A DNA stretch of 64,000 bases. It comes from a virus. Its lineage: Duplodnaviria; Heunggongvirae; Uroviricota; Caudoviricetes. The notes beneath the pieces are model-generated. The model worked only from the letters and a program-made list of their open reading frames with translations, was not told the origin of the DNA and did no database searches. Positions within the stretch are counted from its first letter, which is position 1; each line of letters starts with the position of its first letter. Made by a program: the position numbers and the translations under genes. Below, one piece after another: positions 2,580-61,853 of this stretch. Location: positions 165,318-229,317 of IMG/VR virus record IMGVR_UViG_3300014208_000001, one strand, 5' to 3'.

Positions 2580-3068
2580 TAGCTCGTATACCCCATATGC
2601 AAAAAATATGCAACACATTGATAACAATGGTATAATATGTATGTATTTTATATTTTTAGAGATATATGCTGCAATAATTTGTAATGTTGCAAACACTGAT
2701 ACACACAATTTTAATAATTCGTTTTGTAATATTGCGCTAAGTATAATAATACAACCTAATAATATGGTTATTATTATAATCATTGCTGCTTTAATGAAGA
2801 AATGATGCCTCTTATTAAATTTTTTATATGCCTCTTTAACAATATCAATGATCGAATCATCAATCAATTCTATTTTATATGGCGCTTTTTCAATTATATC
2901 ATTTATACATGAATAGCTATATGTCTCTGAAATATACAAATATCGTTCATCTACAAGAAATATTATTACAGTACTCCCGTTAAATACTTGTATAAGTTTA
3001 AGCTCACGACCATCATATATTCTGACCTTTTTAAGTTTTAATTCATTTTGTATTATATTTAAGATCAT
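2571..3068 (-). CDS. hypothetical membrane protein (C-terminal TM helices)
   Basis: A 165-aa ORF with a hydrophobic C-terminal third. Confidence 0.35.
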   Translation of the reverse strand: MILNIIQNELKLKKVRIYDGRELKLIQVFNGSTVIIFLVDERYLYISETYSYSCINDIIEKAPYKIELIDDSIIDIVKEAYKKFNKRHHFFIKAAMIIIITILLGCIIILSAILQNELLKLCVSVFATLQIIAAYISKNIKYIHIIPLLSMCCIFFAYGVYELLK

Positions 3069-8297: not shown

Positions 8298-11219
8298 TTA
8301 CTTATTTTTCTTGCCTGCTGGCTTATGTTTGGTACCAGTCCCATCATCTTGTTTTGGGCTTGTGCCAATACCTTCGAGTTCTTCTCTCGACCCATCAACT
8401 TTTGATTTTGCCGGGTCTGATCTTTTATCTTCATCAGCGTGTGATGTGTATTTCTTATTGCTTGGATCGGTCATATCACGATCTTCAGCCAATCCATCAT
8501 CTTCATCATCAAAATCAGGCATTTCTGATTCTTCTGAATCATCCTCAATCGGATTCACAGTGTCAACCGGCTTCATATCGCCTTCGACACCTTCAATATC
8601 ACCTTCAACGTCAGCGACGTCACCTTCGATAGCTTCTTCGTCATCTTCAAGCGATTCAACATCACCTTCTAACTCATCGCCTTCAATACCTAATTCATCT
8701 TCACCTTCAAGATCGCCACCGAATGGTTCTTCACCACCCATCATCTCATCTTCTGGTTCTGTAATAACTTGATCACCGTCGCTGTCGACATTGACGTCAC
8801 CGTCGACACTTACACTTATTGTTCCATCACTACTGGCTGTGATTGTGGCCACAGCTTCATCTAGTAATGCACGATCTTCTTCTGTCAGAGGAGCTAATTG
8901 CTCCAAATTTTCTGATAACCAATCACAGAATGGTTGGGCATCAGCTTTAGTGACTCCAGCGGCAGCTAATGCTGACTTTCTTAGCATTTTTGGCACTGGG
9001 ACACTAATATCACCGCTTTCATTCATAACTATGGCGTCGACATTAGCCGATGGAATACCATGGTCTAGAATAAAATTGACACCATTAGCGGTACCAGCAA
9101 CACCATCTTTTTGTCTAGTTGTCCACTGAATATCTTCAGAAGTCAACTTCTCAGACAATTTATTTATTGAAGACCGCTTATAGCCAGCCTTCTTAATTTT
9201 TGGGCTCTTGTATTGGTCTTCAACGACGCCCTCATTGCCAAATTCGGCATCGTTATCACAAGAGCCATCATCGCAATCTTCGTCTTCATCGTCATCATTT
9301 TCCCAAGGTTTCCCGCTCTCCATGAAAGCTTTAGAAACTTGTTCAATGGCGAAGAATGCTTTATTAGCTGGAATTGTCACTCCAACAGCTTCTATAGCCG
9401 CTTTGGATAATTCCGTCAAATTCTCATTTATTGTTGAACCATTTATATCGTTCTCTTCAGCTAATCGACCCATCATGGTGATGATTTTGGTCAATATTTT
9501 CTTATCGGTGATGACTGGCTTGCCATAATCAAACATCTGGCGAGCTTTTGTTTGTTTAAATGCATATGGGTCAAATGATTCGCCTAGTCCTTCGTCATTT
9601 CCAAACTCGGCATTGCCTGTCTGACCGCCACCAGCGCCACCTTGTAGCATATCTGGTCCGCCACCTTCTCCAAGGTCGAATTCACCAGTATCATCGATAC
9701 CCTCATCGTCATCGATATCTAGATCATCGCCAGCGAAATCGTCTTCACCACCGCCGCCACTGGTTCCACCTATTTGAATCAATGGTGAGTTGATCACAAT
9801 TTGTGGTGGCTTATCTTCATGGTCATCACCACCTAAATCTAGATCTTCGCTAGCATCGTCATTGCCCATGTCGATGTCTTTGGCGAAATTGTCGTCACCT
9901 GGGATCGCATCGAAATCTTTGAGATTTTCATTAGCCGACAACTCTTCTTGAATTGTAGCAATTAAATCTTCTGCTTCATAAATCGATGCGTCATCGAATG
10001 CTGGTTCTCTTAATCTTGTGATTAAGTCATTTAATCTCGATGATAGATCATGCGATTCTTTAATTCTTGGCGTTCTATTTTTCAGAACGTCAAGTGTCGT
10101 GGCTAGTGCTTCTGCAGTAACTTCACGGTTCGAGATAGCTTCGAAGATCATTTCAAGGAATCTATCATATGCACCGTTAAAATCAGATGCACCACTTAAT
10201 TTATCGACATTTTCAAGTAACGTGGCATGTTCAGAAGCGATAGCTATTTTCCGCCATTCTCTGACTATTGTGTTCTTATTGACTTTCAAGTTAGTCTTAT
10301 ATAGTAGTGATGCGGTATTTTTAGCCAGATCTTCGTTAAAGCATGCTTTAGTGGCTAGGGCATTTCCGACTAATGTATCGATTTCACTTCTTTTCAGAAG
10401 TGTAAATTCCTCATTTTCTTTCAGGAATGGTCCGACTAATTTAATTGCTTCTTCTATTTTATTGTCATAAATCAACTGTGCGGTTTCGTATATTCTGTTT
10501 TGGAAACCGGTTGATTTATATGCTTCTTTTGCAGCTTCTTTCATGTGTTTGCCAATGAGCTTCTTTGAGGCCCATTTGGTAACTGGCAGCTTGATTGGTT
10601 TTCCATCATTGAATGAGCATGATAGTGTACCACCATGTTCAACAATGACTTTATTATTCAGTGACTCGACGATGTATTGAACGATTTTTTCTTTTGCTTC
10701 TGCGGAGACAGCTTGGCCACCACTGACTTTGATTTTTCTGGCAACGCCATCTCTGGTTCTGACAATACCATGTTCTGGTATTATTTTGCCAGAGAATCTC
10801 TGGCTTGCTATTTTGTCAAATGCCGATGACATACCATTTTGATTATTACTTTCTATGGCATCTATTAATTGTAGACATGAACTTTCGAATAGTGATTGTT
10901 TTTCTTCTTCTATAATTTCTATTTTGACTATATTCTCGATTACGACTCGACCGCCTTTTTCACGGCGGAAATCTGCCTTGTAATAGTCATTTGTGTCAAC
11001 ATCTTCGATGAAGAGGTCACCACCGTACTGTTGATCGCGATTAATCTGCTTTAATCTGAAAGAGGCAAGTTTCCAATTCTTGCCTATTGAAGATCCCATT
11101 TCTGAGATCTTGCTTTCAAACAGAGCTTTTTTAGCGTCAACAGATTCATTGATACTAGCCAGAAACTTACGGGAATCCATTCTAGTTGGATTCACCACCG
11201 TGTTCTGATTCTTAGCCAT
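8298..11219 (-). CDS. large (~974 aa) highly acidic protein with Gly/Asp-rich disordered segments (candidate internal head/prohead core protein)
   Basis: The likely start is the internal Met at 11219, with an AAGGAG RBS 9 nt upstream. The ORF track's start at 11381 overlaps the divergent sigma gene. Has long DDxDLGGDD / EGDxEG runs. Confidence 0.55.
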   Translation of the reverse strand: MAKNQNTVVNPTRMDSRKFLASINESVDAKKALFESKISEMGSSIGKNWKLASFRLKQINRDQQYGGDLFIEDVDTNDYYKADFRREKGGRVVIENIVKIEIIEEEKQSLFESSCLQLIDAIESNNQNGMSSAFDKIASQRFSGKIIPEHGIVRTRDGVARKIKVSGGQAVSAEAKEKIVQYIVESLNNKVIVEHGGTLSCSFNDGKPIKLPVTKWASKKLIGKHMKEAAKEAYKSTGFQNRIYETAQLIYDNKIEEAIKLVGPFLKENEEFTLLKRSEIDTLVGNALATKACFNEDLAKNTASLLYKTNLKVNKNTIVREWRKIAIASEHATLLENVDKLSGASDFNGAYDRFLEMIFEAISNREVTAEALATTLDVLKNRTPRIKESHDLSSRLNDLITRLREPAFDDASIYEAEDLIATIQEELSANENLKDFDAIPGDDNFAKDIDMGNDDASEDLDLGGDDHEDKPPQIVINSPLIQIGGTSGGGGEDDFAGDDLDIDDDEGIDDTGEFDLGEGGGPDMLQGGAGGGQTGNAEFGNDEGLGESFDPYAFKQTKARQMFDYGKPVITDKKILTKIITMMGRLAEENDINGSTINENLTELSKAAIEAVGVTIPANKAFFAIEQVSKAFMESGKPWENDDDEDEDCDDGSCDNDAEFGNEGVVEDQYKSPKIKKAGYKRSSINKLSEKLTSEDIQWTTRQKDGVAGTANGVNFILDHGIPSANVDAIVMNESGDISVPVPKMLRKSALAAAGVTKADAQPFCDWLSENLEQLAPLTEEDRALLDEAVATITASSDGTISVSVDGDVNVDSDGDQVITEPEDEMMGGEEPFGGDLEGEDELGIEGDELEGDVESLEDDEEAIEGDVADVEGDIEGVEGDMKPVDTVNPIEDDSEESEMPDFDDEDDGLAEDRDMTDPSNKKYTSHADEDKRSDPAKSKVDGSREELEGIGTSPKQDDGTGTKHKPAGKKNK

Positions 11220-14730: not shown

Positions 14731-15149
14731 TTAGAAGTCCATTCAGATTCTATTTTTTTATTAGACAATTGATTAAATTGATTAAATTCATCCTCACATA
14801 AATTAAATTCTATATGCCTTTTATCAATATATCTAACATTGGACATCACAACCATATCAACCATACAATAATATAATACATACGTGCCATTTAAATCTTT
14901 ACCAGACAATTCACAATATATTGATTGAGTCGGCTTAAAATTTTTTATCAATCTATTCTTTATTTCTTCTCCGCAATTTTCACAACAATCGATACTTTTA
15001 ATAATACGTTCTAATAATATTGATCTTATTTCTGGCTTATGATTTACAACATTTACTTTTCTAAAATCCATTGAATAATATGTAAATTGCGATTTAACCT
15101 CTATTTTACACAAGTCACATACTATTCCATCTTTTGATTTATTAAGCAT
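14727..15149 (-). CDS. Cys-rich hypothetical protein (CxxC ... CCxxC)
   Basis: A 140-aa ORF coupled to the terminase stop. Confidence 0.4.
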   Translation of the reverse strand: MLNKSKDGIVCDLCKIEVKSQFTYYSMDFRKVNVVNHKPEIRSILLERIIKSIDCCENCGEEIKNRLIKNFKPTQSIYCELSGKDLNGTYVLYYCMVDMVVMSNVRYIDKRHIEFNLCEDEFNQFNQLSNKKIESEWTSN

Positions 15150-18100
15150 TATTCACCTTTTCGTTTAAAATAATATTTTGGTGGTGTTACAATAGGACCA
15201 TTTTTAGACATTGGTATAGCACCTAACTGATAAGTAAATGCATCTAATTGACGCTGAATATTTTGTTCAGGCATTTCATCTGGCGTGCCAACAAATGGTA
15301 AAAATGGATTACCAGTCGCATTTACTAATTGTTTATGGTATTGAACCATTTGATCATCAGTAAAGATAGTAGGCCCAGCCAAACTAGTAAAATCAGAAGA
15401 TGATAACACCGGCCCAGCAGAAACCGATGAAAGTGCAAACGAATCATTAATAGCCACCAACGCTAACGCAAAAGCCATAACAAGATCGTCAAAATTATTA
15501 GCACCTTCTTCAGCTTCAGTCTTTCCAGTATCCCTACCAGATTTGTCTCTTTTTCTAACATACGTATTAAATTGCTTCAATAATCTCCTGCTATAAACTT
15601 TATACCCAGCATCATCTTCGTCTCTAACATAATCTATTAATAACCTGTTCAAAATCGGTTTAGATGCCATAGTAGTAAAGAAACCATATCTATCAATTTT
15701 CATAGCTCGCTGTGTACTACTCGATGGTCTAGGTTTATCATTGATGTCCTTTTTGCGCCATATATTAGGATAATTAAATTCATGTCGTAGAGCATCTATT
15801 AAATTATCACCACCATTATTGCGTTCTAATACTAACATAGCATTGTTATAATATCTTCCCAAATAATCAACAAATCGTAAAAATTGTTTTGGTAAGCATC
15901 TTACCATCATTTCAGCTACTTGTTCCATTGTTATTGCATCTAATATTTCTAATGCATGATAATCTTTACCTTTACCAGTTGCAAAGTCGACACCCATAAC
16001 ATATATATGAGGTGGTTCACCTGGTGATATTATTTGATTATTTCGCATTTTTGCTGGTTTTGCTTGTATCGGATGCTCCCACACCCACAAACCAGATTCA
16101 GATTCTTGCTCATTGAAACTTAATTCTTCTGATTCTCCTGTGCTTGGATTTGTGTATAATATTGTATTAGTGACTCTATCTGGTTCTTTCATAGTTGTAG
16201 CTAATTTAGTTAATACTGATCTAGTTATAACTGTATTACCAGAGCCAATAAATGATGCTAAAACTTCCTGGTTAAATTTCCATCCTTCACCTTTTTCTTG
16301 CAGACCGCGCCATTGTTCTTCTAACCATGGTGACCAATATGGACCATATTTATCTTCTTCTTCTTTAGTGGTACATTTTCTCAATCCGTCTCTTGGTGCT
16401 ATCCGTACTAATTCTCTACTTAAACTATCTCTATATTCAATATTCCAATCCATATCCCACCAATTAACACATATCGGATTAAATACATTATCGCCAGCTT
16501 CAGCTTCTGTCCACGTGCCCCAATACCAGTTGCCGACTCCATTCGTATTCGCGTGTACAGTGCAGTCACCGATAAAAGTGTGTGTGTTTGGTAATGTGAA
16601 ATCATATACTTCCGCTTCAGAATCTTCTAATGATTTAACCTCATTGAACCAATCATATTCTAATAATTTAATAAGAGAATCATAAGCGTCATTACCTTCA
16701 TATGAAATCTTACTCATAAACGAAGCGAGACGATCTTTAGTTATCCTTGATCTTGATCCATAAAGAACATTTGGGGCTAATCCCAATTTAGTCATTTTAG
16801 CGATTGAAAGATCAGTTGTGTCTTTTAATTGTTTTAAAAGATTCTTAACAACTGGTGGCATTAACTCAGACCAAACTGACGTCTTATTTTTTTGTAAAGC
16901 TTGTTTTCTACCCAAATCAAAACCAATAAGATCATAAAACAAATTTGTAAAATTGTTAGAAACATATAATCGATATGATTCACGAGTATCATGTGTAGTG
17001 GTCTCACCATTATTACGTTTAAATGACGTCATACCAGGCGGCGATATTTCTAAATATGTATGTATTCCATAATTAAATAATAACATCCTAACTTGTTTAA
17101 TAAGTTTTTTAGATGTAGAAGTATAACAAACTTGCCCTTTTCTCGTTAAAGCAGCACCATCACCATCAAACAATCCTCTAAGAAAATTCCTTATTATTGG
17201 TTCAGAACATTGTAATAATCTTTTTGGTATAGTTTTAAATGGTGCTATTGTACATTCAACACCAAGATATTTAAGAAATCTAACAAACATAGGTGATGAA
17301 CATACCGTAACATAATCTTGCCCTTTTCTTCCTCTATTCCAATTAATATTGCCCCAAGATTCGCATCGATCTAGAACTTTAGAATCACCACACGACAATA
17401 CCACTTCAGCAGTAATTTTACCATTTTTTCTAATTGTTTCTCTTACATGACCTTCAGCTATAATAACACCAAGCATATAAGCAATATCTTCATCCATCTT
17501 TTTTATTTGAAAAATTGGTGAGTTTAAATTATCATCTCTATAACTCTTATTACGATCTTCATAATTTAATATATCATTATTTCCGAAAACCATTTGCCCA
17601 GCTTTAACTGGCAGGAAGTCTCCGATCTGTAAATCTTGAATATATTTATTATTTATAGTCCCATTAGATGACACAACTGGCAATTTGTGTAATAATGATG
17701 CTTCGAATTCATAGCAACAAGATGTTTTAACAATTTTAGTTGCTTCTTTTGGTCTTTTATAAAATTTAGTAGCTGGTTCTAAACCATCAATCCCAACAAT
17801 ATCTGGCCCCTTATAATCAGTATGATAATAACCATCATCAAAGCCATCGTATTCATGAGGTGCTAAATCTTGTATTTCACATAAACCGTTTGCAGTATTA
17901 ATTAAAGTATCTGGTGCCACACATGTACTAATTACTATTGTACTACCACCGTGAGTCATGGTTGAATAACCGGCTGCCCACATCACATCCATATCTTGAA
18001 TAAATGCTGCTTCGTCTATTATATTCAATGATGATGCATTTGATCGTAAAACATCTGGGTGTGATGTCATAGATTTTATAACTGTACCATTAGTAAATGC

Positions 18101-19516
18101 TATTGCGTGTTCATTCCATCCTTTTCTGCCTGTGGTGCCTATACGTGGTGCCCATATATCTTGCATCCACTCTGGTAAGTTATTAAATAAGAACGCCACA
18201 TTCTCTTTCAGAAATCCTTTGGCGTCTTCATCTCTACGAGAAACGATTAATATTGTTTTATTTGGGTTGAACATCGCAAACCATAATGCGAATGCCCCAG
18301 ATACTTTCGATATACCACAGTTATGAACAACAGCCCCATCAACAATATAATTATTATATGGTGGAACATTTAAATCATAAACACATCCATCACCTTTAAC
18401 ACGTTTAATAGATTTAATATCACCTTTTTCTCTATTAAAAAAGAATCCCTTAGTTATTTGATTACGTGGCTTTTTACCATAAATACCAATATATTGTACA
18501 AATCTATTAAAATCATCTTTACCAATTATACGTAATTTTGGTATTGTTGTGGTCGTGCGTGGATAATATACAGCATTAATATTAAATCTAGTTAATAATT
18601 GCTTCAGCTGATGAAGCATTGTAACCGATTCTAATCCTATTCCAGCTTCATTACAATTGCCGCCAGAATACCATCCATCACCGGCAAACATCCTATTAAT
18701 TAATACTGCTATTGATTTATTGTCCCATTTAAACACATCGCTCGGTATTGTTTTATCAGCTTTTATCTTATTAAGTATATTATATCGATCTGCCCAACAC
18801 GTAGCAGCAACACATGTAGTTTGCAATCTATAATTCTTAGTCGATTCTGGTTTAAATCCACTCTCATGTTTTCGTATTGTTAATTGTAATCCGAATCTAT
18901 TTTTAAAACATTTTTGATATTCTAATAAATATTTCCAACATGAATTATTAAATGTGACAAATCTGCCAGTTGATCCATCAGTCAATAAGTATCCTAATAA
19001 TATTGGATCATTATGATTAGGAGTATATCCATATCTTTCAATATCATTGATTTCTATTAACTTCTTATTGCCTATCAAATCACCAGCTTTTATATATCCA
19101 TTATTTGTTAAATACTCATGGTCATATGTGGCTATTGATCTATGTCCAGATTTGGATCGCACTTCTACAAGATTATCAGAAATACCATTATTATAAACAT
19201 CATTTACTGGTACTGCTTCTATGGCGTTGGTATGATAATTTAATGTATAAACCAAATCACCTTTATTAATCTGATCTATGCGTTTTGGACCATTTGGTCC
19301 CCAAACCATTTGGTCACCAGCAAAACACTGTCTACATTTTTTAAATATATTAAATCTATGCTGTTTAAATGCATTCAACGCCATTTTCTGATAGCTGAAT
19401 AATTTAAACGGTAATATACCAGCAGACGGATGCTTTACTTTACCAAAATTCTCTAAAAACCACGATATCGATTGTCTAGATCGTAAAATAACTTGTTTTT
19501 GAGTATCATTCATCAA
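15149..19516 (-). CDS. terminase large subunit, gp17-like, interrupted by two inteins
   Basis: The extein sequence FKKCRQ/CGISKVSGAF...IIDEAAF...IVIST/TNGVGNWYW parallels T4 gp17 SRQLGKTT...IYIDECAF...IIITTTPNGLNHFYDIW. The nuclease half HALEILD matches gp17 HALHIID. Confidence 0.9.
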   Translation of the reverse strand: MMNDTQKQVILRSRQSISWFLENFGKVKHPSAGILPFKLFSYQKMALNAFKQHRFNIFKKCRQCFAGDQMVWGPNGPKRIDQINKGDLVYTLNYHTNAIEAVPVNDVYNNGISDNLVEVRSKSGHRSIATYDHEYLTNNGYIKAGDLIGNKKLIEINDIERYGYTPNHNDPILLGYLLTDGSTGRFVTFNNSCWKYLLEYQKCFKNRFGLQLTIRKHESGFKPESTKNYRLQTTCVAATCWADRYNILNKIKADKTIPSDVFKWDNKSIAVLINRMFAGDGWYSGGNCNEAGIGLESVTMLHQLKQLLTRFNINAVYYPRTTTTIPKLRIIGKDDFNRFVQYIGIYGKKPRNQITKGFFFNREKGDIKSIKRVKGDGCVYDLNVPPYNNYIVDGAVVHNCGISKVSGAFALWFAMFNPNKTILIVSRRDEDAKGFLKENVAFLFNNLPEWMQDIWAPRIGTTGRKGWNEHAIAFTNGTVIKSMTSHPDVLRSNASSLNIIDEAAFIQDMDVMWAAGYSTMTHGGSTIVISTCVAPDTLINTANGLCEIQDLAPHEYDGFDDGYYHTDYKGPDIVGIDGLEPATKFYKRPKEATKIVKTSCCYEFEASLLHKLPVVSSNGTINNKYIQDLQIGDFLPVKAGQMVFGNNDILNYEDRNKSYRDDNLNSPIFQIKKMDEDIAYMLGVIIAEGHVRETIRKNGKITAEVVLSCGDSKVLDRCESWGNINWNRGRKGQDYVTVCSSPMFVRFLKYLGVECTIAPFKTIPKRLLQCSEPIIRNFLRGLFDGDGAALTRKGQVCYTSTSKKLIKQVRMLLFNYGIHTYLEISPPGMTSFKRNNGETTTHDTRESYRLYVSNNFTNLFYDLIGFDLGRKQALQKNKTSVWSELMPPVVKNLLKQLKDTTDLSIAKMTKLGLAPNVLYGSRSRITKDRLASFMSKISYEGNDAYDSLIKLLEYDWFNEVKSLEDSEAEVYDFTLPNTHTFIGDCTVHANTNGVGNWYWGTWTEAEAGDNVFNPICVNWWDMDWNIEYRDSLSRELVRIAPRDGLRKCTTKEEEDKYGPYWSPWLEEQWRGLQEKGEGWKFNQEVLASFIGSGNTVITRSVLTKLATTMKEPDRVTNTILYTNPSTGESEELSFNEQESESGLWVWEHPIQAKPAKMRNNQIISPGEPPHIYVMGVDFATGKGKDYHALEILDAITMEQVAEMMVRCLPKQFLRFVDYLGRYYNNAMLVLERNNGGDNLIDALRHEFNYPNIWRKKDINDKPRPSSSTQRAMKIDRYGFFTTMASKPILNRLLIDYVRDEDDAGYKVYSRRLLKQFNTYVRKRDKSGRDTGKTEAEEGANNFDDLVMAFALALVAINDSFALSSVSAGPVLSSSDFTSLAGPTIFTDDQMVQYHKQLVNATGNPFLPFVGTPDEMPEQNIQRQLDAFTYQLGAIPMSKNGPIVTPPKYYFKRKGE
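16547..17923 (-). mobile_element. intein 2 (459 aa, LAGLIDADG) in terminase before the T(P)NG motif
   Basis: Starts CVAPDTLI and ends TVHAN, followed by Thr. Has MLGVIIAEGHV and LRGLFDGDGAA motifs. Confidence 0.75.
18320..19327 (-). mobile_element. intein 1 (336 aa, LAGLIDADG homing endonuclease) in terminase Walker A P-loop
   Basis: Starts CFAGDQMVWG and ends VVHN, followed by Cys. Has LLGYLLTDGS and FAGDGWYS dodecapeptides. Codon boundaries were verified on the DNA. Confidence 0.8.
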
Positions 19517-23618: not shown

Positions 23619-24635
23619 TTATTCATCATCATCAATACTAAAAATTGATTTAGTGTCATATTGAGCTTCACTGCGTCTATTTAATGGTGAATCAGAAAAT
23701 TCATAACTACGTAATTTTATGTATCTAAAAAAGCTTGATATTACTTGTCTATTACATCCAGTAATTTTAGCTAATTTCGATACCATTCCATCATGTGGTC
23801 TATCATCATAAGTAATTAATGTTTCTAATCCATTTATTACTGATATAAAATCTGGATTATATTTGCATATTTCTGATGCTTCTGCTACAAATCTCTCTAA
23901 AACTGATGAATTAGCTTTATGTTTATTGCCCAAATGAGAAATATATGATGTAGAATTCTTACGATCTCTTGCTTCTTTTTTAATATATGCTAATATCACT
24001 GTTCTAGCTATTTGGCTCCACATATTAAATACTTTTGATAATCCTCTATACAATACTGTATCACTACCACCATATAAATCAAGTTCTGCTTCTATTAATG
24101 GATATTTTGTTAGTTTTGTTTTACATTTAGGGCATTCATCAATAATAGTTAATAATCTATCTAATGTTATTACATCATATTCTAATGGTTTTGGATCATA
24201 TAATGATGAGTCAGATGGTCTCTCATGATGAAAGCATTTCCTGCAGTGTGGTTTGGCTCTATATTTATATAGGACTCGTTCTACTTGACACCATGCCGTT
24301 TGGAGTAAATCTCCGAATGCTGATTCTTCTCTTCCTGGGTAAATTTCATGTAATTTTTGTTTTCTTATTATTTGTCGTATTAATTCTGATGCGTGAGACA
24401 TTATATTGTCTCGTAGTGTAACACTTGTGCATCCTGTCCATAAATATTGTGTTAATAACCATTCTACATGTTCATTTATAAAATACATTCTTTTGGTCGT
24501 TCTTGGTGACGACCTATGAATTATTATATTATCATCATCATTTGAAAGTTGGGATTCTGAATCGTCTTCTAATAAAATCGGCACCATCAATTGATCCATT
24601 TTTAAACAAAATTGTCGATTTATAACCTGAATCAA
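23619..24635 (-). CDS. hypothetical protein with two CxxC zinc-ribbon motifs; possible transcription regulator
   Basis: CRKCFHH...CPKCKTK, a helical N-terminal half and a C-terminal HTH-like segment. Confidence 0.35.
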   Translation of the reverse strand: MIQVINRQFCLKMDQLMVPILLEDDSESQLSNDDDNIIIHRSSPRTTKRMYFINEHVEWLLTQYLWTGCTSVTLRDNIMSHASELIRQIIRKQKLHEIYPGREESAFGDLLQTAWCQVERVLYKYRAKPHCRKCFHHERPSDSSLYDPKPLEYDVITLDRLLTIIDECPKCKTKLTKYPLIEAELDLYGGSDTVLYRGLSKVFNMWSQIARTVILAYIKKEARDRKNSTSYISHLGNKHKANSSVLERFVAEASEICKYNPDFISVINGLETLITYDDRPHDGMVSKLAKITGCNRQVISSFFRYIKLRSYEFSDSPLNRRSEAQYDTKSIFSIDDDE

Positions 24636-26112
24636 CGATTATTTTAAGACGATTCCTGGCATGATCATATAAATACCGGTTGCACAGGAACAGAAAATCA
24701 AATACTTTACTCTTACCTTTAGTATTTATCCTTACAGCACGCCCTATCTGTTGTATAAATGTTGATTGTAATTTACCACCGGTTGCGATAATTAAATTAT
24801 CACAACCACCTTTCAAATCTAATCCTCTATTAACAATTTTACCACCAACCAACACTTTAAACTTTTTATCTTCAAAATTCTTTAACACTTCACGACGTTT
24901 TGGCTTAGGAGTCTTACCATAAATATAGTGGGCTTCAATTCCAATTTGAGCAAGCTTTTCAACCAAAATCAGACCAAGTGTTTCCCTCTCTACCAATATC
25001 ATAGTAGAATCAGTACTATAAATTTTGCATATATTTAGAATCTTCTTATGAAATTCATTATTATTAACTATAAAATCATCAATAGCCATATCATATACAG
25101 TCCTATCATCTTTAGACCCATTCTCACCAATAGACATCATATAATATTCTATTGGAATAATACGCCCAATATTTTGCAAATTACTAACAGATTCCTCATG
25201 AATAACAGACCCTAAATGGGCAGTAACTTGCATATTTTGTATCGGTTTAGCCGGATCATATGGTGTCCCACTAAATCCATATCTCCTACGACCTTTAAAA
25301 TGATTTTTAAATATTTCTTTCCATTGGCCACTAACAGCTTTATCAGCCTCATCAACAATTAACATATCAGCATTTTTAATATATTTTAATAATTTCTTAG
25401 AATTCTCTATTCTAGTAGCATATGCTACTAAAGATTTTTGATGCCTATCTAATTTCTTCTTAAAATCACTATCATCATCTGATTCATCTCTAATTGGCTT
25501 TTTAGGTTTAAATCTTGGTGGCACTAACGATTGAATAGTACCAACTACAATCGTCTCACCATTTGGTCTAGACCCAGCATAAAACATTCCTACTGTATCA
25601 ATAATATCTCTTAATTCTATACGTTTCTTTAATTGCTCAACAACAATAGTTTGATCAGCCAATATCACAGTAGGACATTGTATAACTTTGCACGTACCAG
25701 CTATTAACTCACCTTTACCAGATCCAGTTGGCGCTTTGCACAAACCACATTCAGAAGATGTGGTCAATTTTAACCAATCAACTTGATGATCATCTAATGT
25801 TATATCAGGTAAAAATTTATTATCTATAGTATCTTTATCAATAGGTGTATATTTAGGTTCTTCTCTAGCGTCAATAACTTCTAATGGTAATGCATGTTTA
25901 TCACATACACTTTTTAACATTGCAAGAAATGGTCTAGCTAATTTTCTTCTGCTTTTATTATAAAATCTATATATTCCATCCCATGCTGTTATTGTGTCTA
26001 TAAATCGTGCTTTTTTATCAGCAACACTAAATTCACGCCATAAAATATCTTCCTCATGTGTTGATATTGTATCAAAATGTATCCATTGATTATCGACAAT
26101 TATCGCGCGCAT
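24538..26112 (-). CDS. superfamily II DNA/RNA helicase (UvsW-like)
   Basis: Motif I CKAPTGSGKGE, motif II LIVDEADK, motif VI QQIGRAVR. Confidence 0.75.
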   Translation of the reverse strand: MRAIIVDNQWIHFDTISTHEEDILWREFSVADKKARFIDTITAWDGIYRFYNKSRRKLARPFLAMLKSVCDKHALPLEVIDAREEPKYTPIDKDTIDNKFLPDITLDDHQVDWLKLTTSSECGLCKAPTGSGKGELIAGTCKVIQCPTVILADQTIVVEQLKKRIELRDIIDTVGMFYAGSRPNGETIVVGTIQSLVPPRFKPKKPIRDESDDDSDFKKKLDRHQKSLVAYATRIENSKKLLKYIKNADMLIVDEADKAVSGQWKEIFKNHFKGRRRYGFSGTPYDPAKPIQNMQVTAHLGSVIHEESVSNLQNIGRIIPIEYYMMSIGENGSKDDRTVYDMAIDDFIVNNNEFHKKILNICKIYSTDSTMILVERETLGLILVEKLAQIGIEAHYIYGKTPKPKRREVLKNFEDKKFKVLVGGKIVNRGLDLKGGCDNLIIATGGKLQSTFIQQIGRAVRINTKGKSKVFDFLFLCNRYLYDHARNRLKIIVDSGYKSTILFKNGSIDGADFIRRRFRIPTFK

Positions 26113-26340
26113 TCAAAATCCTTAATTAAAATCACGTCAAATTTGTAAATACGACACAAATGTTAATATCAATATGGGTTGGGCAAATAAGCAATAATAC
26201 TAATATAGATCGCCACTATTATTATTGATGGGTATATACGTATATCAAAATTCATTTCTGCTAATCGCATTGTTACGAATATTATCGCTGCACATATTAT
26301 ATTTATTTGATATCGTTTTATCAATTATGACCTTATAAAA

Positions 26341-26374
26341 ATGAACCACACCACCGATTGGTGGTGTGGTTCAT
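26341..26374 (-). terminator. intrinsic terminator: perfect 15-bp stem, 4-nt loop, followed on the minus strand by TTTTATAA
   Basis: atgaaccacaccacc-gatt-ggtggtgtggttcat. Confidence 0.6.
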
Positions 26375-26520
26375 CCCTGCTCTCAGGGTGTCACGTGCCT
26401 CATTTCGAACTGAGGGTTTCGGCCTACGTCTACCTGTGCCTATTGCGTCATGTGCTCCTGTCGGTAAAGCATTCGCTAAACGTCACCCCACACAGGCCAG
26501 ATGGGGTCGGAGACATCCAG
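26375..26520 (-). ncRNA. GC-rich (~55%) structured 3' element / candidate sRNA between operon stop and terminator
   Basis: Sharp GC jump against AT-rich flanks, several local stems (ccctg...caggg; cctca-8nt-tgagg) and no coding ORF. Confidence 0.25.
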
Positions 26521-26880
26521 TCAAGTCTCTTTATGGGACTTGACAATTTCTTCAATTGCCAACACAATCCTAGCACGTGTCATTGGATCTGACTTCAAAA
26601 CATTGACTTGTTTCTCAATCTCACCGCCGAACCGCTGAACCAATGTTTTTGCAAGGTTCGAGCGAACTGCGGCAGCGATATGGTTACGGAATTCATCATC
26701 CGCAACCGCAGACCCGATCGCATTCTCAAGCAATTCACGAAAAGCACTGTTGTGCTTCTCAATTGCTGCAGTTAAAAGTTTGTCGATTGGGCTATTATAC
26801 CCCTTCAACTTATCAGTAACTGACTCCCTGATTCCGTCATGGATAGCACGACTAAGAAGCTCATCAGCGTTGATTTCCAT
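26521..26880 (-). CDS. hypothetical all-helical protein, last gene of the PspA/SPFH operon
   Basis: A 119-aa ORF. GC-richer than the genome background. Confidence 0.4.
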   Translation of the reverse strand: MEINADELLSRAIHDGIRESVTDKLKGYNSPIDKLLTAAIEKHNSAFRELLENAIGSAVADDEFRNHIAAAVRSNLAKTLVQRFGGEIEKQVNVLKSDPMTRARIVLAIEEIVKSHKET

Positions 26881-26910
26881 AATACCTCCTACTTTGGTAG
26901 TGAATATGTG

Positions 26911-39256: not shown

Positions 39257-39918
39257 TCATTAGCTAAAATTTCAGTGATGTTTCTGACAAAATTAGGATC
39301 ACGAGCTATTAACTTTGATCTCTCAACAAACAAATCAATCATAGATGGCAATAAGTGAGCATCATTTATCTTATTATCATTTAAGTATAATACAACTCTG
39401 GCGCAGCTATACGATAATGACATGTACTGTATTGATAATTTTTTGGATAAGTACAGGTTTGTGATTGCATATGATCTATTGTGCTTCTCTTTTATTAATA
39501 ATGCGGCTACGATGTCTTTTTTAAGCACACCACCGTTAGTTTTTTCAAGCAATACTGATCGAGATGAATTAATTATATTGATCAATCGCTCTGATGTCGA
39601 ATTTTCTTTTATTAATTCTTTATAAACATACTCTATTGTTGATTTCTTATTTAATGCTGATAGTCCTTTACACAATAATTTCATATTTTTAATATGTTTT
39701 ACAGCAATATGAATAAATCTATCTATCGAATAATCATCAAGACCATATTTTTCAAAATTGTTATGTAATGATAATAAATGACGCCAATGATATGTTTTAT
39801 GTGGGTCTGTATTGGCTGGAAATTTGAGCTTGTACCCATATTGTAAATACACTCTGAAGCATTTGTCCCATAATTGCATAACACGTTCATCAACCGTATT
39901 ATCAATATTCGACACCAT
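39241..39918 (-). CDS. hypothetical protein
   Basis: A 225-aa ORF, overlapping the RNR start by 16 nt. Confidence 0.4.
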   Translation of the reverse strand: MVSNIDNTVDERVMQLWDKCFRVYLQYGYKLKFPANTDPHKTYHWRHLLSLHNNFEKYGLDDYSIDRFIHIAVKHIKNMKLLCKGLSALNKKSTIEYVYKELIKENSTSERLINIINSSRSVLLEKTNGGVLKKDIVAALLIKEKHNRSYAITNLYLSKKLSIQYMSLSYSCARVVLYLNDNKINDAHLLPSMIDLFVERSKLIARDPNFVRNITEILANDWRNV

Positions 39919-39965
39919 TCCGATTTGCCTCCACGATTTAAATACGACAAAAAGAAAGATGATAC

Positions 39966-40208
39966 ATGCCCAATAACGAATCCAAAGACAATTTTGACAA
40001 TACTGAAGGTAATGATAAAATTTTAATTGGTGCTATAGAAAGTATCGCACCAATTTTAGAAAAAAGTGGATTAGAATGTATGATAATTATAAATACAGAA
40101 CCTAAACCAATAGTATGGACAGTAGGTAAACCATTTGATTTAGTTAAAATGAGTGCTCCTATTATCAGAGCACTCAAAGATGATATATTCAAATCTATAG
40201 ATTGTTAA
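39966..40208 (+). CDS. small hypothetical protein (plus strand)
   Basis: An 80-aa charged ORF. The competing antisense ORF 39938..40192 is hydrophobic and less protein-like. Confidence 0.25.
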   Translation: MPNNESKDNFDNTEGNDKILIGAIESIAPILEKSGLECMIIINTEPKPIVWTVGKPFDLVKMSAPIIRALKDDIFKSIDC

Positions 40209-40421
40209 TTATTCAAACGAATCAATATGCCATTGTATATCAGTGCCTCTGGCTGCATCTAATTTTTCGTATTCTCTATTTTTCATAGTTCTGATAGCAT
40301 GACCACAAATAATTTTTAACTGCTTAGTGTCAACATTATCTATAATTCTTATAATCTGATACATAGTATCGTCTGGTACTTTAATTCTATTAGACACTTC
40401 TTCTATTAATGAAATTTTCAT
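40209..40421 (-). CDS. hypothetical small protein
   Basis: A 70-aa ORF. Confidence 0.3.
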   Translation of the reverse strand: MKISLIEEVSNRIKVPDDTMYQIIRIIDNVDTKQLKIICGHAIRTMKNREYEKLDAARGTDIQWHIDSFE

Positions 40422-61557: not shown

Positions 61558-61697
61558 TAACGCCGCTTCACGTAAATGACGAAATATAAATACATAATTA
61601 ACACGGACTGAGAATCACAACTTCAACCCGTGATAGATCCCAACAACAACCCCAATTATCATACCCAACGCTATAACGAGGATTGTCTTGAATCCGC

Positions 61698-61853
61698 CTA
61701 GAATAATGTCATCGGTTGATGACGTCGGCATGGTGGAGATGGAAACCAACGGTTACATACCAAGGCGACCAACAACCCAAGCAGTCCGCCAACGCCGGCA
61801 TAAAGCACGGCGAAGGCTATAACAGCGAAAATTGTTACGATGATTTGCATCAT
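61698..61853 (-). CDS. small single-pass membrane peptide (51 aa) in a GC-rich island, unannotated
   Basis: Hand translation MMQIIVTIFAVIAFAVLYAGVGGLLGLLVALVCNRWFPSPPCRRHQPMTLF. Local GC is well above the flanking genes. Confidence 0.3.
   Translation of the reverse strand: MMQIIVTIFAVIAFAVLYAGVGGLLGLLVALVCNRWFPSPPCRRHQPMTLF

Follow-up and report, generated by a model that had tools for sequence, protein, structure and literature searches.

The minus-strand segment 26375-26520 encodes one representative of a family of structured ~150-nt RNAs that had not been catalogued before (the window, here and below, is the whole 64,000-nt stretch of phage DNA that was analysed). Its fold of six helices and two pseudoknots is supported by covariation among relatives. 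We consider that it most probably acts as a non-coding RNA borne in a 3'UTR with a discrete function at the RNA level, for example in processing or stability or as a recognition platform; we give this reading a probability of roughly 0.55. A preliminary description made from the letters alone had offered three options, namely an sRNA derived from a 3'UTR, a cis-regulatory RNA, or a relic of host DNA. The first fits the window best. The element is a structured RNA of the minus strand, located where a transcription unit ends and closed by a predicted terminator. The features of the locus are as follows.

26521-26880, minus strand: ORF of the 119-aa gene, whose UGA stop (26523-26521) abuts the RNA
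26375-26520, minus strand: conserved structured RNA (P1 to P6, PK1, PK2), ~146 nt, 56.8% GC, matched by covariance model R1
26333-26374, minus strand: predicted intrinsic terminator: 15 perfect base pairs closed by a 4-nt loop (26374-26341), followed by UUUUAUAA
26296-26324, minus strand: sigma-70-like promoter TTGATA-17-TATAAT, 11 of 12 consensus matches, a consensus match only

The window comes from a 355,863-bp contig of a jumbo myophage with tail sheath, baseplate, portal, terminase and ribonucleotide reductase genes. The long ORFs around the element all lie on the minus strand, in the order of two SPFH genes, a GGSKSSFS-repeat protein, DUF350, a 185-aa ORF and PspA, followed by the 119-aa ORF (26880-26521), the GC-rich stretch, the hairpin, UUUUAUAA, the sigma-70-like site and a phage DNA helicase gene. 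The first six of these genes (26911-32768, minus strand) form a membrane-stress-like block of two SPFH/Band-7 proteins, the GGSKSSFS protein, DUF350, the 185-aa ORF and a PspA/IM30 homologue. The GGSKSSFS protein, secreted or anchored, has about ten repeats, with 24-nt tandem repeats at 29038-29301. The locus showed no DNA similarity to the GenBank phage collection.

The GC content was 55.6% over 26341-26520 and 56.8% over 26375-26520, the latter being the highest among all 146-nt windows of the 64 kb (mean 34.2%, standard deviation 6.5%). The region of about 145 nt and about 55% GC in AT-rich DNA that had been described beforehand is thus real (146 nt, 56.8% versus 34%), and so is its perfect 15-bp terminator hairpin with a minus-strand T-run. 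The arms atgaaccacaccacc (26341-26355) and ggtggtgtggttcat (26360-26374) are complementary at 15 of 15 positions around a 4-nt loop, and 26341-26374 is the longest perfect local hairpin within the window. On the minus strand it is followed by the U-run UUUU-A-U-AA at 26340-26333, so that a GC-containing stem-loop, a U-run and a gene end coincide at 26341-26374 as expected of a putative intrinsic terminator. The 15-bp terminator was not present in relatives, in which P6 itself usually precedes a U-run. The TTGATA-17-TATAAT site had the best score of any promoter-like site in 24400-33000, and it is placed for the downstream helicase gene (26112-24538). Because the terminator comes right after it and the promoter-like site next, 26375-26520 forms the 3' end of its transcription unit here. 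On the opposite strand, a terminator-like hairpin at 26520-26544 (GTCAAGTCTC...GGGACTTGAC, with a T-rich tail) shares sequence with the final codons of the 119-aa ORF and is probably incidental.

Stops interrupt all three minus-strand frames of the element. An ORF of 83 aa is open over it on the plus strand, and neither its frame nor its strand was kept among homologues; the lengths of the element in homologues differ by non-multiples of three. The earlier view that there is no convincing ORF therefore stands.

The RNA folds into the following parts.

26446-26516, minus strand: P1, a long-range helix enclosing P2 and P3, with 5' strand AUGUCUCC (26516-26509) and 3' strand within 26458-26446
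26486-26506, minus strand: P2 hairpin, CCCCA (26506-26502) with UGGGG (26490-26486)
26438-26497, minus strand: PK1 pseudoknot, P2-loop GCCUGU (26497-26492) with AUAGGC (26443-26438)
26464-26481, minus strand: P3, a variable hairpin, AGC/GCU plus GU/AC, weak and AU-rich in the window
26421-26434, minus strand: P4, a short hairpin, GGU (26434-26432) with GCC (26423-26421), loop AGACGUAG
26393-26429, minus strand: PK2 (helix alpha), P4-loop ACGU (26429-26426) with ACGU (26396-26393)
26398-26415, minus strand: P5 hairpin (helix 9), CCUCA/UGAGG with a G.A mismatch and apical UUCGAA (26409-26404)
26375-26392, minus strand: GACA linker (26392-26389) and P6 hairpin, CCCU(G)/(C)AGGG with loop GAGAG(C)

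Single-sequence folding of the element gave a z-score of -3.7, most of which is due to the terminator; the real support is the covariation in relatives. We evaluated this in A6, a model-derived alignment of 33 distinct sequences and 42 pairs that was fitted to the nested helices and not to PK1 or P4. In A6, 82.7% of cells were paired compared to 61.6% in shuffles (0 of 500 reached the observed value), and 39 of the 42 pairs changed on both sides. The covariation score was 0.439, as opposed to 0.133 in shuffled alignments and at most 0.084 with slid partners; the shuffle controls overstate significance because the sequences share ancestry, whereas the slid-partner control is fairer and the difference is still clear. 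The minus strand is the RNA strand, as G.U pairs are abundant (for example, at columns 32/99 in 26 sequences). An unguided all-against-all scan of the columns recovered the same pairs and no competing or alternative helices. RNAalifold on a plain MAFFT alignment found P2 and P6 only, and the full fold needed the hand-derived structure and a covariance model. Lack of both a conserved structure and a stable transcript, or an origin as a fragment of a protein-coding gene, had been named beforehand as grounds against an RNA. The fold is conserved at 30 or more loci with compensatory changes in 39 of 42 pairs, and both the frame stops and the length differences speak against a gene fragment.

The individual helices differ in their variability. 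P1 (family helices 1 and 2) can adopt two registers in the window, GGAG-C-ACAU (26458-26450) or the family register GGA...GACG; it was 67-72% paired in the family, with double changes in 8 of 9 pairs. P2 (helix 3) was 93.3% paired and compensatory in 5 of 5 pairs, and it carries a conserved 11-nt loop, UCUGGCCUGUG (26501-26491), with the family form UCYGGCCnGUG. Part of this loop forms PK1 (helix 4; family form GCCnGU with AUn'GGC directly 3' of P1), which was 93.8% paired with compensation in 5 of 6 pairs, though it lies outside the alignment model; six pair types occur at its central pair, which ranks first among the column pairs of the unguided scan. P3 (helices 5 and 6) was 68-80% paired and P4 (helix 7; family loop (G)ACGCA) 73%, with double changes in all seven and all three of their pairs, respectively. 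PK2 (helix 8) is ACGC/GCGU in most relatives, the GCGU lying within the conserved AAGCGUGACA, and was 89.8% paired; the window shows a compensatory change from C-G to U-A. P6 (helix 10; family loop GAGAGA) was paired in 100% of cells and compensatory in 4 of 4 pairs. The window copy thus differs from the consensus in a compensatory manner in PK1 (GCCU/AGGC), PK2 (ACGU/ACGU) and P6 (CCCUG/CAGGG).

The relatives came from 55 loci encoding homologues of the 119-aa protein, sampled in viral, genome and metagenome collections, together with the two closest relatives. In about 30 of these loci, the ~150 nt after the stop codon could be aligned with the window element, and the family comprises at least 30 metagenomic phage loci. 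The covariance model R1 was built from 17 loci, and its E-values, like those of R2 below, are rough. In the window, R1 matched 26373-26522 on the minus strand with 106 bits (E about 1e-32, a rough value). Across 60 sources it found 34 sites (the window and 33 others), all sense to the upstream ORF, with 108-111 bits for the closest relatives L189 and L190. The preceding ORF, nearly always one for a homologue of the 119-aa protein, has its stop codon 1-7 nt before the start of the RNA. The genomes of the relatives have 53-60% GC. The window is the one AT-rich case, and this explains why its RNA is conspicuous by GC content.

None of the 295 homologues of the 119-aa protein has a known domain, and the protein is a member of no Pfam, PHROG or NCBIfam family. 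Its AF2 model consisted entirely of helices (pLDDT 82), and we found no PDB match, no solved relative and no fold match. The conserved neighbour of the RNA is this gene and not PspA/SPFH. Homologues of PspA, SPFH and DUF350 as well as the helicase were absent from all other RNA-bearing loci, so the PspA/SPFH neighbourhood is specific to this genome. The position downstream of the last gene of a PspA/SPFH operon, as first described, is correct for this genome; elsewhere the 119-aa gene occurs without PspA/SPFH neighbours. The suggestion of a relic of host DNA captured with the operon fails on the absence of PspA, SPFH and DUF350 from the other RNA loci and on the compensatory conservation in at least 30 of them. 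In relatives, the 119-aa gene lies in an early/replication region with integrase-like, HTH, AAA_24, RecD-like, ERF and PD-(D/E)XK genes. About 13 homologues of the gene were not accompanied by the RNA, and the link between gene and RNA is therefore facultative. In L032, another ORF is inserted between them, and its UGA again directly abuts the RNA.

Phage CsrA (PF02599) genes were present within 3 kb of the pair of RNA and 119-aa gene in at least 10 distinct loci, and directly downstream of the RNA in L008/L056 (10550-10747), L010 (3543-3701) and L190 (1891-2082). Another phage CsrA gene lies at 3237-3377 of L005, directly 3' or within 3 kb of the pair. Genes for tRNAs were also observed near the 119-aa gene, in L022 (887-959), L001 (2949-3022) and L002 (2250-2323 and 4056-4233). 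One of the L002 tRNAs spans 178 nt and may contain an intron, and in L022 the tRNA takes the place of the RNA 3' of the 119-aa gene.

The last third of the RNA, comprising the ACGC/GCGU helix, GACA and the hairpin with the GAGAGA loop, is a module of ~45 nt and two hairpins that is much more widespread. Its unit reads (G/C)AACGYC, a loop of 4-17 nt, GRCGU, GACA and GCCG(G)-GAGAGA-(C)CGGC-A. With the pattern GCGTGACAGCCGG(N)AGAGAC we found the module in at least 120 viral contigs, nearly all of those listed being without the 119-aa gene. The module loci are L058-L177 (IMG/VR), L184, L186-L188 and L191. When the 17-nt core pattern GCACAGGYGGACGCAAG was used on viral contigs, the additional matches fell in coding sequence and were due to chance. 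A second model, R2, was made for the module, and it also matched the 3' half of the full-length RNAs L012, L001, L040, L026, L004 and L189. Because R2 recognises this half, the stand-alone module and the 3' module of the full-length RNA are the same. In the stand-alone module, 97% of cells were paired, and 95% in PK2; the covariation of the module on its own is weak, since it was found by an exact 19-20-nt pattern and the sampling is biased likewise. One independent copy nevertheless carries the compensatory variant ACACC/GGUGU, and Planktothrix phage Pag-Yong1 has two copies in one operon leader with compensatory ACCGC/GCGGU and GACCG/CGGUC.

The module lies on the sense strand, and in most loci the next ORF begins 5-35 nt past it. 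The downstream ORFs belong to 83 PHROG families, including adaptors, tail proteins, helicases, methylases, recombinases, portal and HNH proteins, and in other loci a tRNA array begins ~10 nt past the module. Some leaders have two copies, and many stand-alone modules are without a U-run. Among cultured phages, in which it was never annotated, the module is found in those of Planktothrix, Synechococcus, Microcystis, Rhodobacter, Stenotrophomonas, Pseudomonas, Cronobacter, Acinetobacter and Morganella; E. coli genomes contained none. A promoter-like sequence, read by eye, precedes the module in Cronobacter phage CS01 and in the Morganella phage. We rejected the reading of the module itself as an ECF-sigma or T7/SP6-type promoter (AAC...CGT; GTGACA-N5-GAGAGA), because its spacer ranges from 4 to more than 17 nt, covariation is seen in both hairpins, and the range of hosts and phage types is too wide.

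Some module loci showed further peculiarities. L166 carries two tandem copies (10695-10800) and L170 a single hybrid copy (~2973-3010), whose junction lies inside the shared GUGACAGC core, as a recombinational deletion between L166-like repeats would give. A second motif, GGCGGCGUGGA-N4-6-GACACGC, occurs past the module in several unrelated loci (L044, ~1705-1740; L027, ~1615-1650; L070; L143; L164) and could form a GCGUG/CACGC hairpin. In Pseudomonas phage Medea1 (L188), 770 nt near the cI repressor (2192-2961 of the locus, 39452-40221 of the phage) have no annotated gene and contain one module copy. This stretch has a tRNA-like 3' end (GGTTCGAATCCGG...CCCACCA), called a tRNA by neither Rfam nor the annotation, which may be an attP tRNA fragment.

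The stem that had been noticed in the letters, cctca/tgagg enclosing ttcgaa, is present and corresponds to the conserved helix P5. The apical sequence had been likened to a T-loop. What relatives keep is its self-complementarity and not a T-loop sequence, and ARAGORN predicted no tRNA. An apical palindrome of at least 6 nt was found at P5 in 26 of 30 distinct relatives, with nine different hexamers in the 30 sequences (UUGCAA, 13 times; UCAUGA, UUCGAA, UGGCCA, UGUACA, AUCGAU, UCUAGA, GAAUUC and UCGCGA). The P3 control region had a palindrome in 5 of 30, and the chance for a random hexamer is 1/64. The hexamer is usually bracketed by a G.A or A.G mismatch. An apical loop that stays self-complementary through sequence change suggests homodimerisation via a loop-loop or extended-duplex contact. 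The intermolecular contact is the simplest reading, because intramolecular folding needs no self-complementary loop. RNAcofold gave -22.3 kcal/mol for a duplex of the isolated P5 hairpin compared to 2 x -6.3 kcal/mol for the monomers, a difference expected for any palindrome.

The HIV-1 DIS forms a symmetric homodimer through a self-complementary loop. It belongs to a packaged RNA genome, unlike the DNA phage transcript considered here, for which the dimer is a prediction from sequence. Natural RNAs are documented to form homodimers through palindromic pairing (PMC12990946). P5 resembles the HIV-1 DIS, and also HYER1/5 and OLE (PMC12990946), in its self-complementary apical hexamer with purine flanks, independent of the particular sequence.

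Comparisons with known RNAs did not assign the element to a described class. The Infernal/Rfam scan recommended in the preliminary description was run: with the 4227 models of Rfam 15 at gathering thresholds, the window had no match and 31 related loci matched only tRNAs. In E-value mode (E up to 10), the element gave only spurious miRNA and snoRNA matches. ARAGORN reported 0 tRNA or tmRNA genes, no cloverleaf was detected, and no T-loop UUCRANY is conserved among relatives. A metabolite riboswitch would have a consistent set of downstream genes, and the 83 PHROG families behind the module are no such set. The strings GCACAGG...GACGCAA and CGUGAC are reminiscent of the cores of GEMM-I c-di-GMP and ZTP riboswitches. 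However, there was no match to either at E up to 10, the helices bearing these strings are arranged differently here, and there is no gene association. Literature searches with conserved strings returned unrelated primers and keyword searches no description of the RNA, which may stand unnamed in the 10,006-csRNA catalogue; novelty is judged here apart from such large uncurated catalogues of phage RNA candidates (PMC10690425).

Several known systems share part of the architecture. Like sRNAs that derive from 3'UTRs and share the terminator of the mRNA, the RNA lies after a stop codon in sense orientation and appears to end at the terminator of its mRNA, with a promoter-like site of the next unit following. 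Typical seed-pairing sRNAs are simpler, whereas the RNA here has six helices, two pseudoknots and no evident single-stranded seed. The module recalls phage and rrn leader antitermination RNAs (lambda nut boxA/boxB, HK022 put) as a short two-hairpin element with a purine-rich loop, located on the sense strand of operon leaders and sometimes present in two copies. In contrast to them, it shows no sequence or model similarity and no boxA-like U-rich element, and many of its copies are intercistronic, right before a ribosome-binding site; R1 had no match in the HK022 genome at E up to 10. GOLLD and ROOL (PMC12286853, PMC12990946) are likewise phage-borne, associated with tRNA arrays (as is the module) and likely to self-associate. 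They are 500-800 nt long compared to ~150 nt for the RNA here and ~45 nt for the module, and no Rfam match to either was obtained. Resemblances to the hammerhead/HDV topology, a K-turn, the sarcin-ricin loop or a mimic of the 16S tail were considered, none of them convincing, nor was an RNase P minihelix, as a 3' ACC occurs in only ~38% of copies.

On the favoured reading of a 3'UTR-borne RNA, the RNA would be made as the 3'UTR of the 119-aa mRNA and would persist there or be released as a discrete, compact, nuclease-resistant non-coding RNA. It would act at the RNA level and not by controlling the next gene. Two molecules may pair through the P5 loop into a homodimer, by HIV-DIS-like kissing or as an extended duplex. 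The invariant single-stranded GACA and the GAGAGA-type loop could then present a recognition surface for a broadly conserved partner, with host RNA polymerase, the ribosome, an RNase or a common phage protein as candidates; the likeliest output would be control of transcript processing, stability or read-through. The occurrence of the module in phages of very different hosts, before both mRNAs and tRNAs, argues that the partner is universal or that the RNA acts on itself. If confirmed, the compact double-pseudoknot fold would join the short list of phage-encoded structured RNAs and bring with it a built-in, easily tested prediction of homodimerisation.

We also tentatively entertain a new phage RNA class with two layers, in which the ~45-nt module is general and the dimeric double-pseudoknot version belongs to the lineage with the 119-aa gene. 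The module would then work via a universal partner or through its own catalysis, as a new processing ribozyme or a leader directed at RNA polymerase or the ribosome. A module that is abundant, conserved and unannotated in phages from cyanobacterial ones to those of Enterobacterales would be expected to engage a universal process, be it transcription elongation, RNA processing or decay, or translation, and may itself be catalytic.

A cis-acting leader or attenuator is the foremost of the rival explanations, and we regard it as rather unlikely. The fold would sense a ligand or protein and set termination at P6 and the U-run before early/replication genes; the trigger might be the 119-aa protein, or a ribosome that terminates there and melts P1. 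In ~20 of 30 relatives a U-run comes after P6, and the P6 stem is lengthened in L033, L035, L036 and L008; most relatives have an ORF that begins 15-40 nt past P6 behind its own ribosome-binding site. With 1-7 nt between the stop codon and P1, this helix would be unwound by a terminating ribosome, and the stand-alone module is located in operon leaders. However, the ORFs downstream of the RNA differ between loci, and many stand-alone modules have no U-run. As an expression platform, P6 with its U-run is terminator-like; neither an anti-terminator pairing nor any other alternative helix covaries. A switch pairing of the P2 loop (UCCGG) with P6 was rejected, because it showed no covariation and fails in L023 and in the window. 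The window's terminator is separate from P6, and this apparently constitutive 15-bp hairpin and the new promoter-like site are predicted to part the RNA from the next gene. The cis-regulatory option put forward at the outset remains a live rival in relatives and is unlikely in the window. Since the layout of P6, U-run and ribosome-binding site is that of a leader or attenuator, a cis role is plausible in relatives, and the window is perhaps atypical.

It is improbable, in our estimate, that the RNA is a self-cleaving ribozyme or a processing signal at which polycistronic transcripts would be cut beside the module, such cuts setting the 5' ends of downstream mRNAs and tRNA precursors. The spread of the module resembles that of small ribozymes (unrelated phages, several host phyla, arbitrary intergenic sites, tandem copies, tRNA arrays), and its pseudoknotted core has ~15 invariant unpaired nucleotides. 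In double-hammerhead ribozymes, palindromic loops force dimers, which is a parallel to the P5-type palindromic loops. However, no ribozyme family of Rfam 15 matched, even at E up to 10, and the hammerhead and HDV topologies could not be mapped onto the RNA.

We give still less credence to a CsrA/RsmA-binding RNA, serving as a sponge or as the autoregulatory leader of phage csrA. The csrA genes near the pair at 10 or more loci and several GGA triplets in the consensus sequences are consistent with it, but these triplets are not conserved. CsrB/RsmZ-type RNAs have conserved GGA loops, and the window lacks GGA in the P4 loop, in P5 and its flank and in the P6 loop. Furthermore, there is no CsrA gene in the 64-kb window, and the module also precedes tRNA arrays. 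Finally, a functionless GC-rich spacer, captured host DNA or a decayed gene next to an ordinary terminator is scarcely credible: the PspA/SPFH block as a whole is somewhat richer in GC (41%) than the remaining window (33-34%) and the GenBank phage collection lacks the locus, but the element is far GC-richer than that block, and its sequence and structure are kept with compensatory changes at 30 or more loci whose flanks are unrelated to the window. If the RNA is confirmed, selection on its structure would explain the 57% GC island in a jumbo-phage genome of 34% GC, and not capture of host DNA.

Other parts of the window also drew our attention. Positions 61664-61839 and 1-199 are further local GC maxima (at least 52%), where neither R1 nor R2 had a match and no resemblance to the structured RNA was seen. 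Two minus-strand ORFs flank the 320-nt gap that holds the former, which on that strand reads as a short hydrophobic ORF. On the same strand, a 1455-aa ORF (15149-19516) showed terminase-large-subunit matches in separated segments together with endonuclease/helicase-like matches, a pattern that points to a terminase gene interrupted by an intein or by an additional domain.
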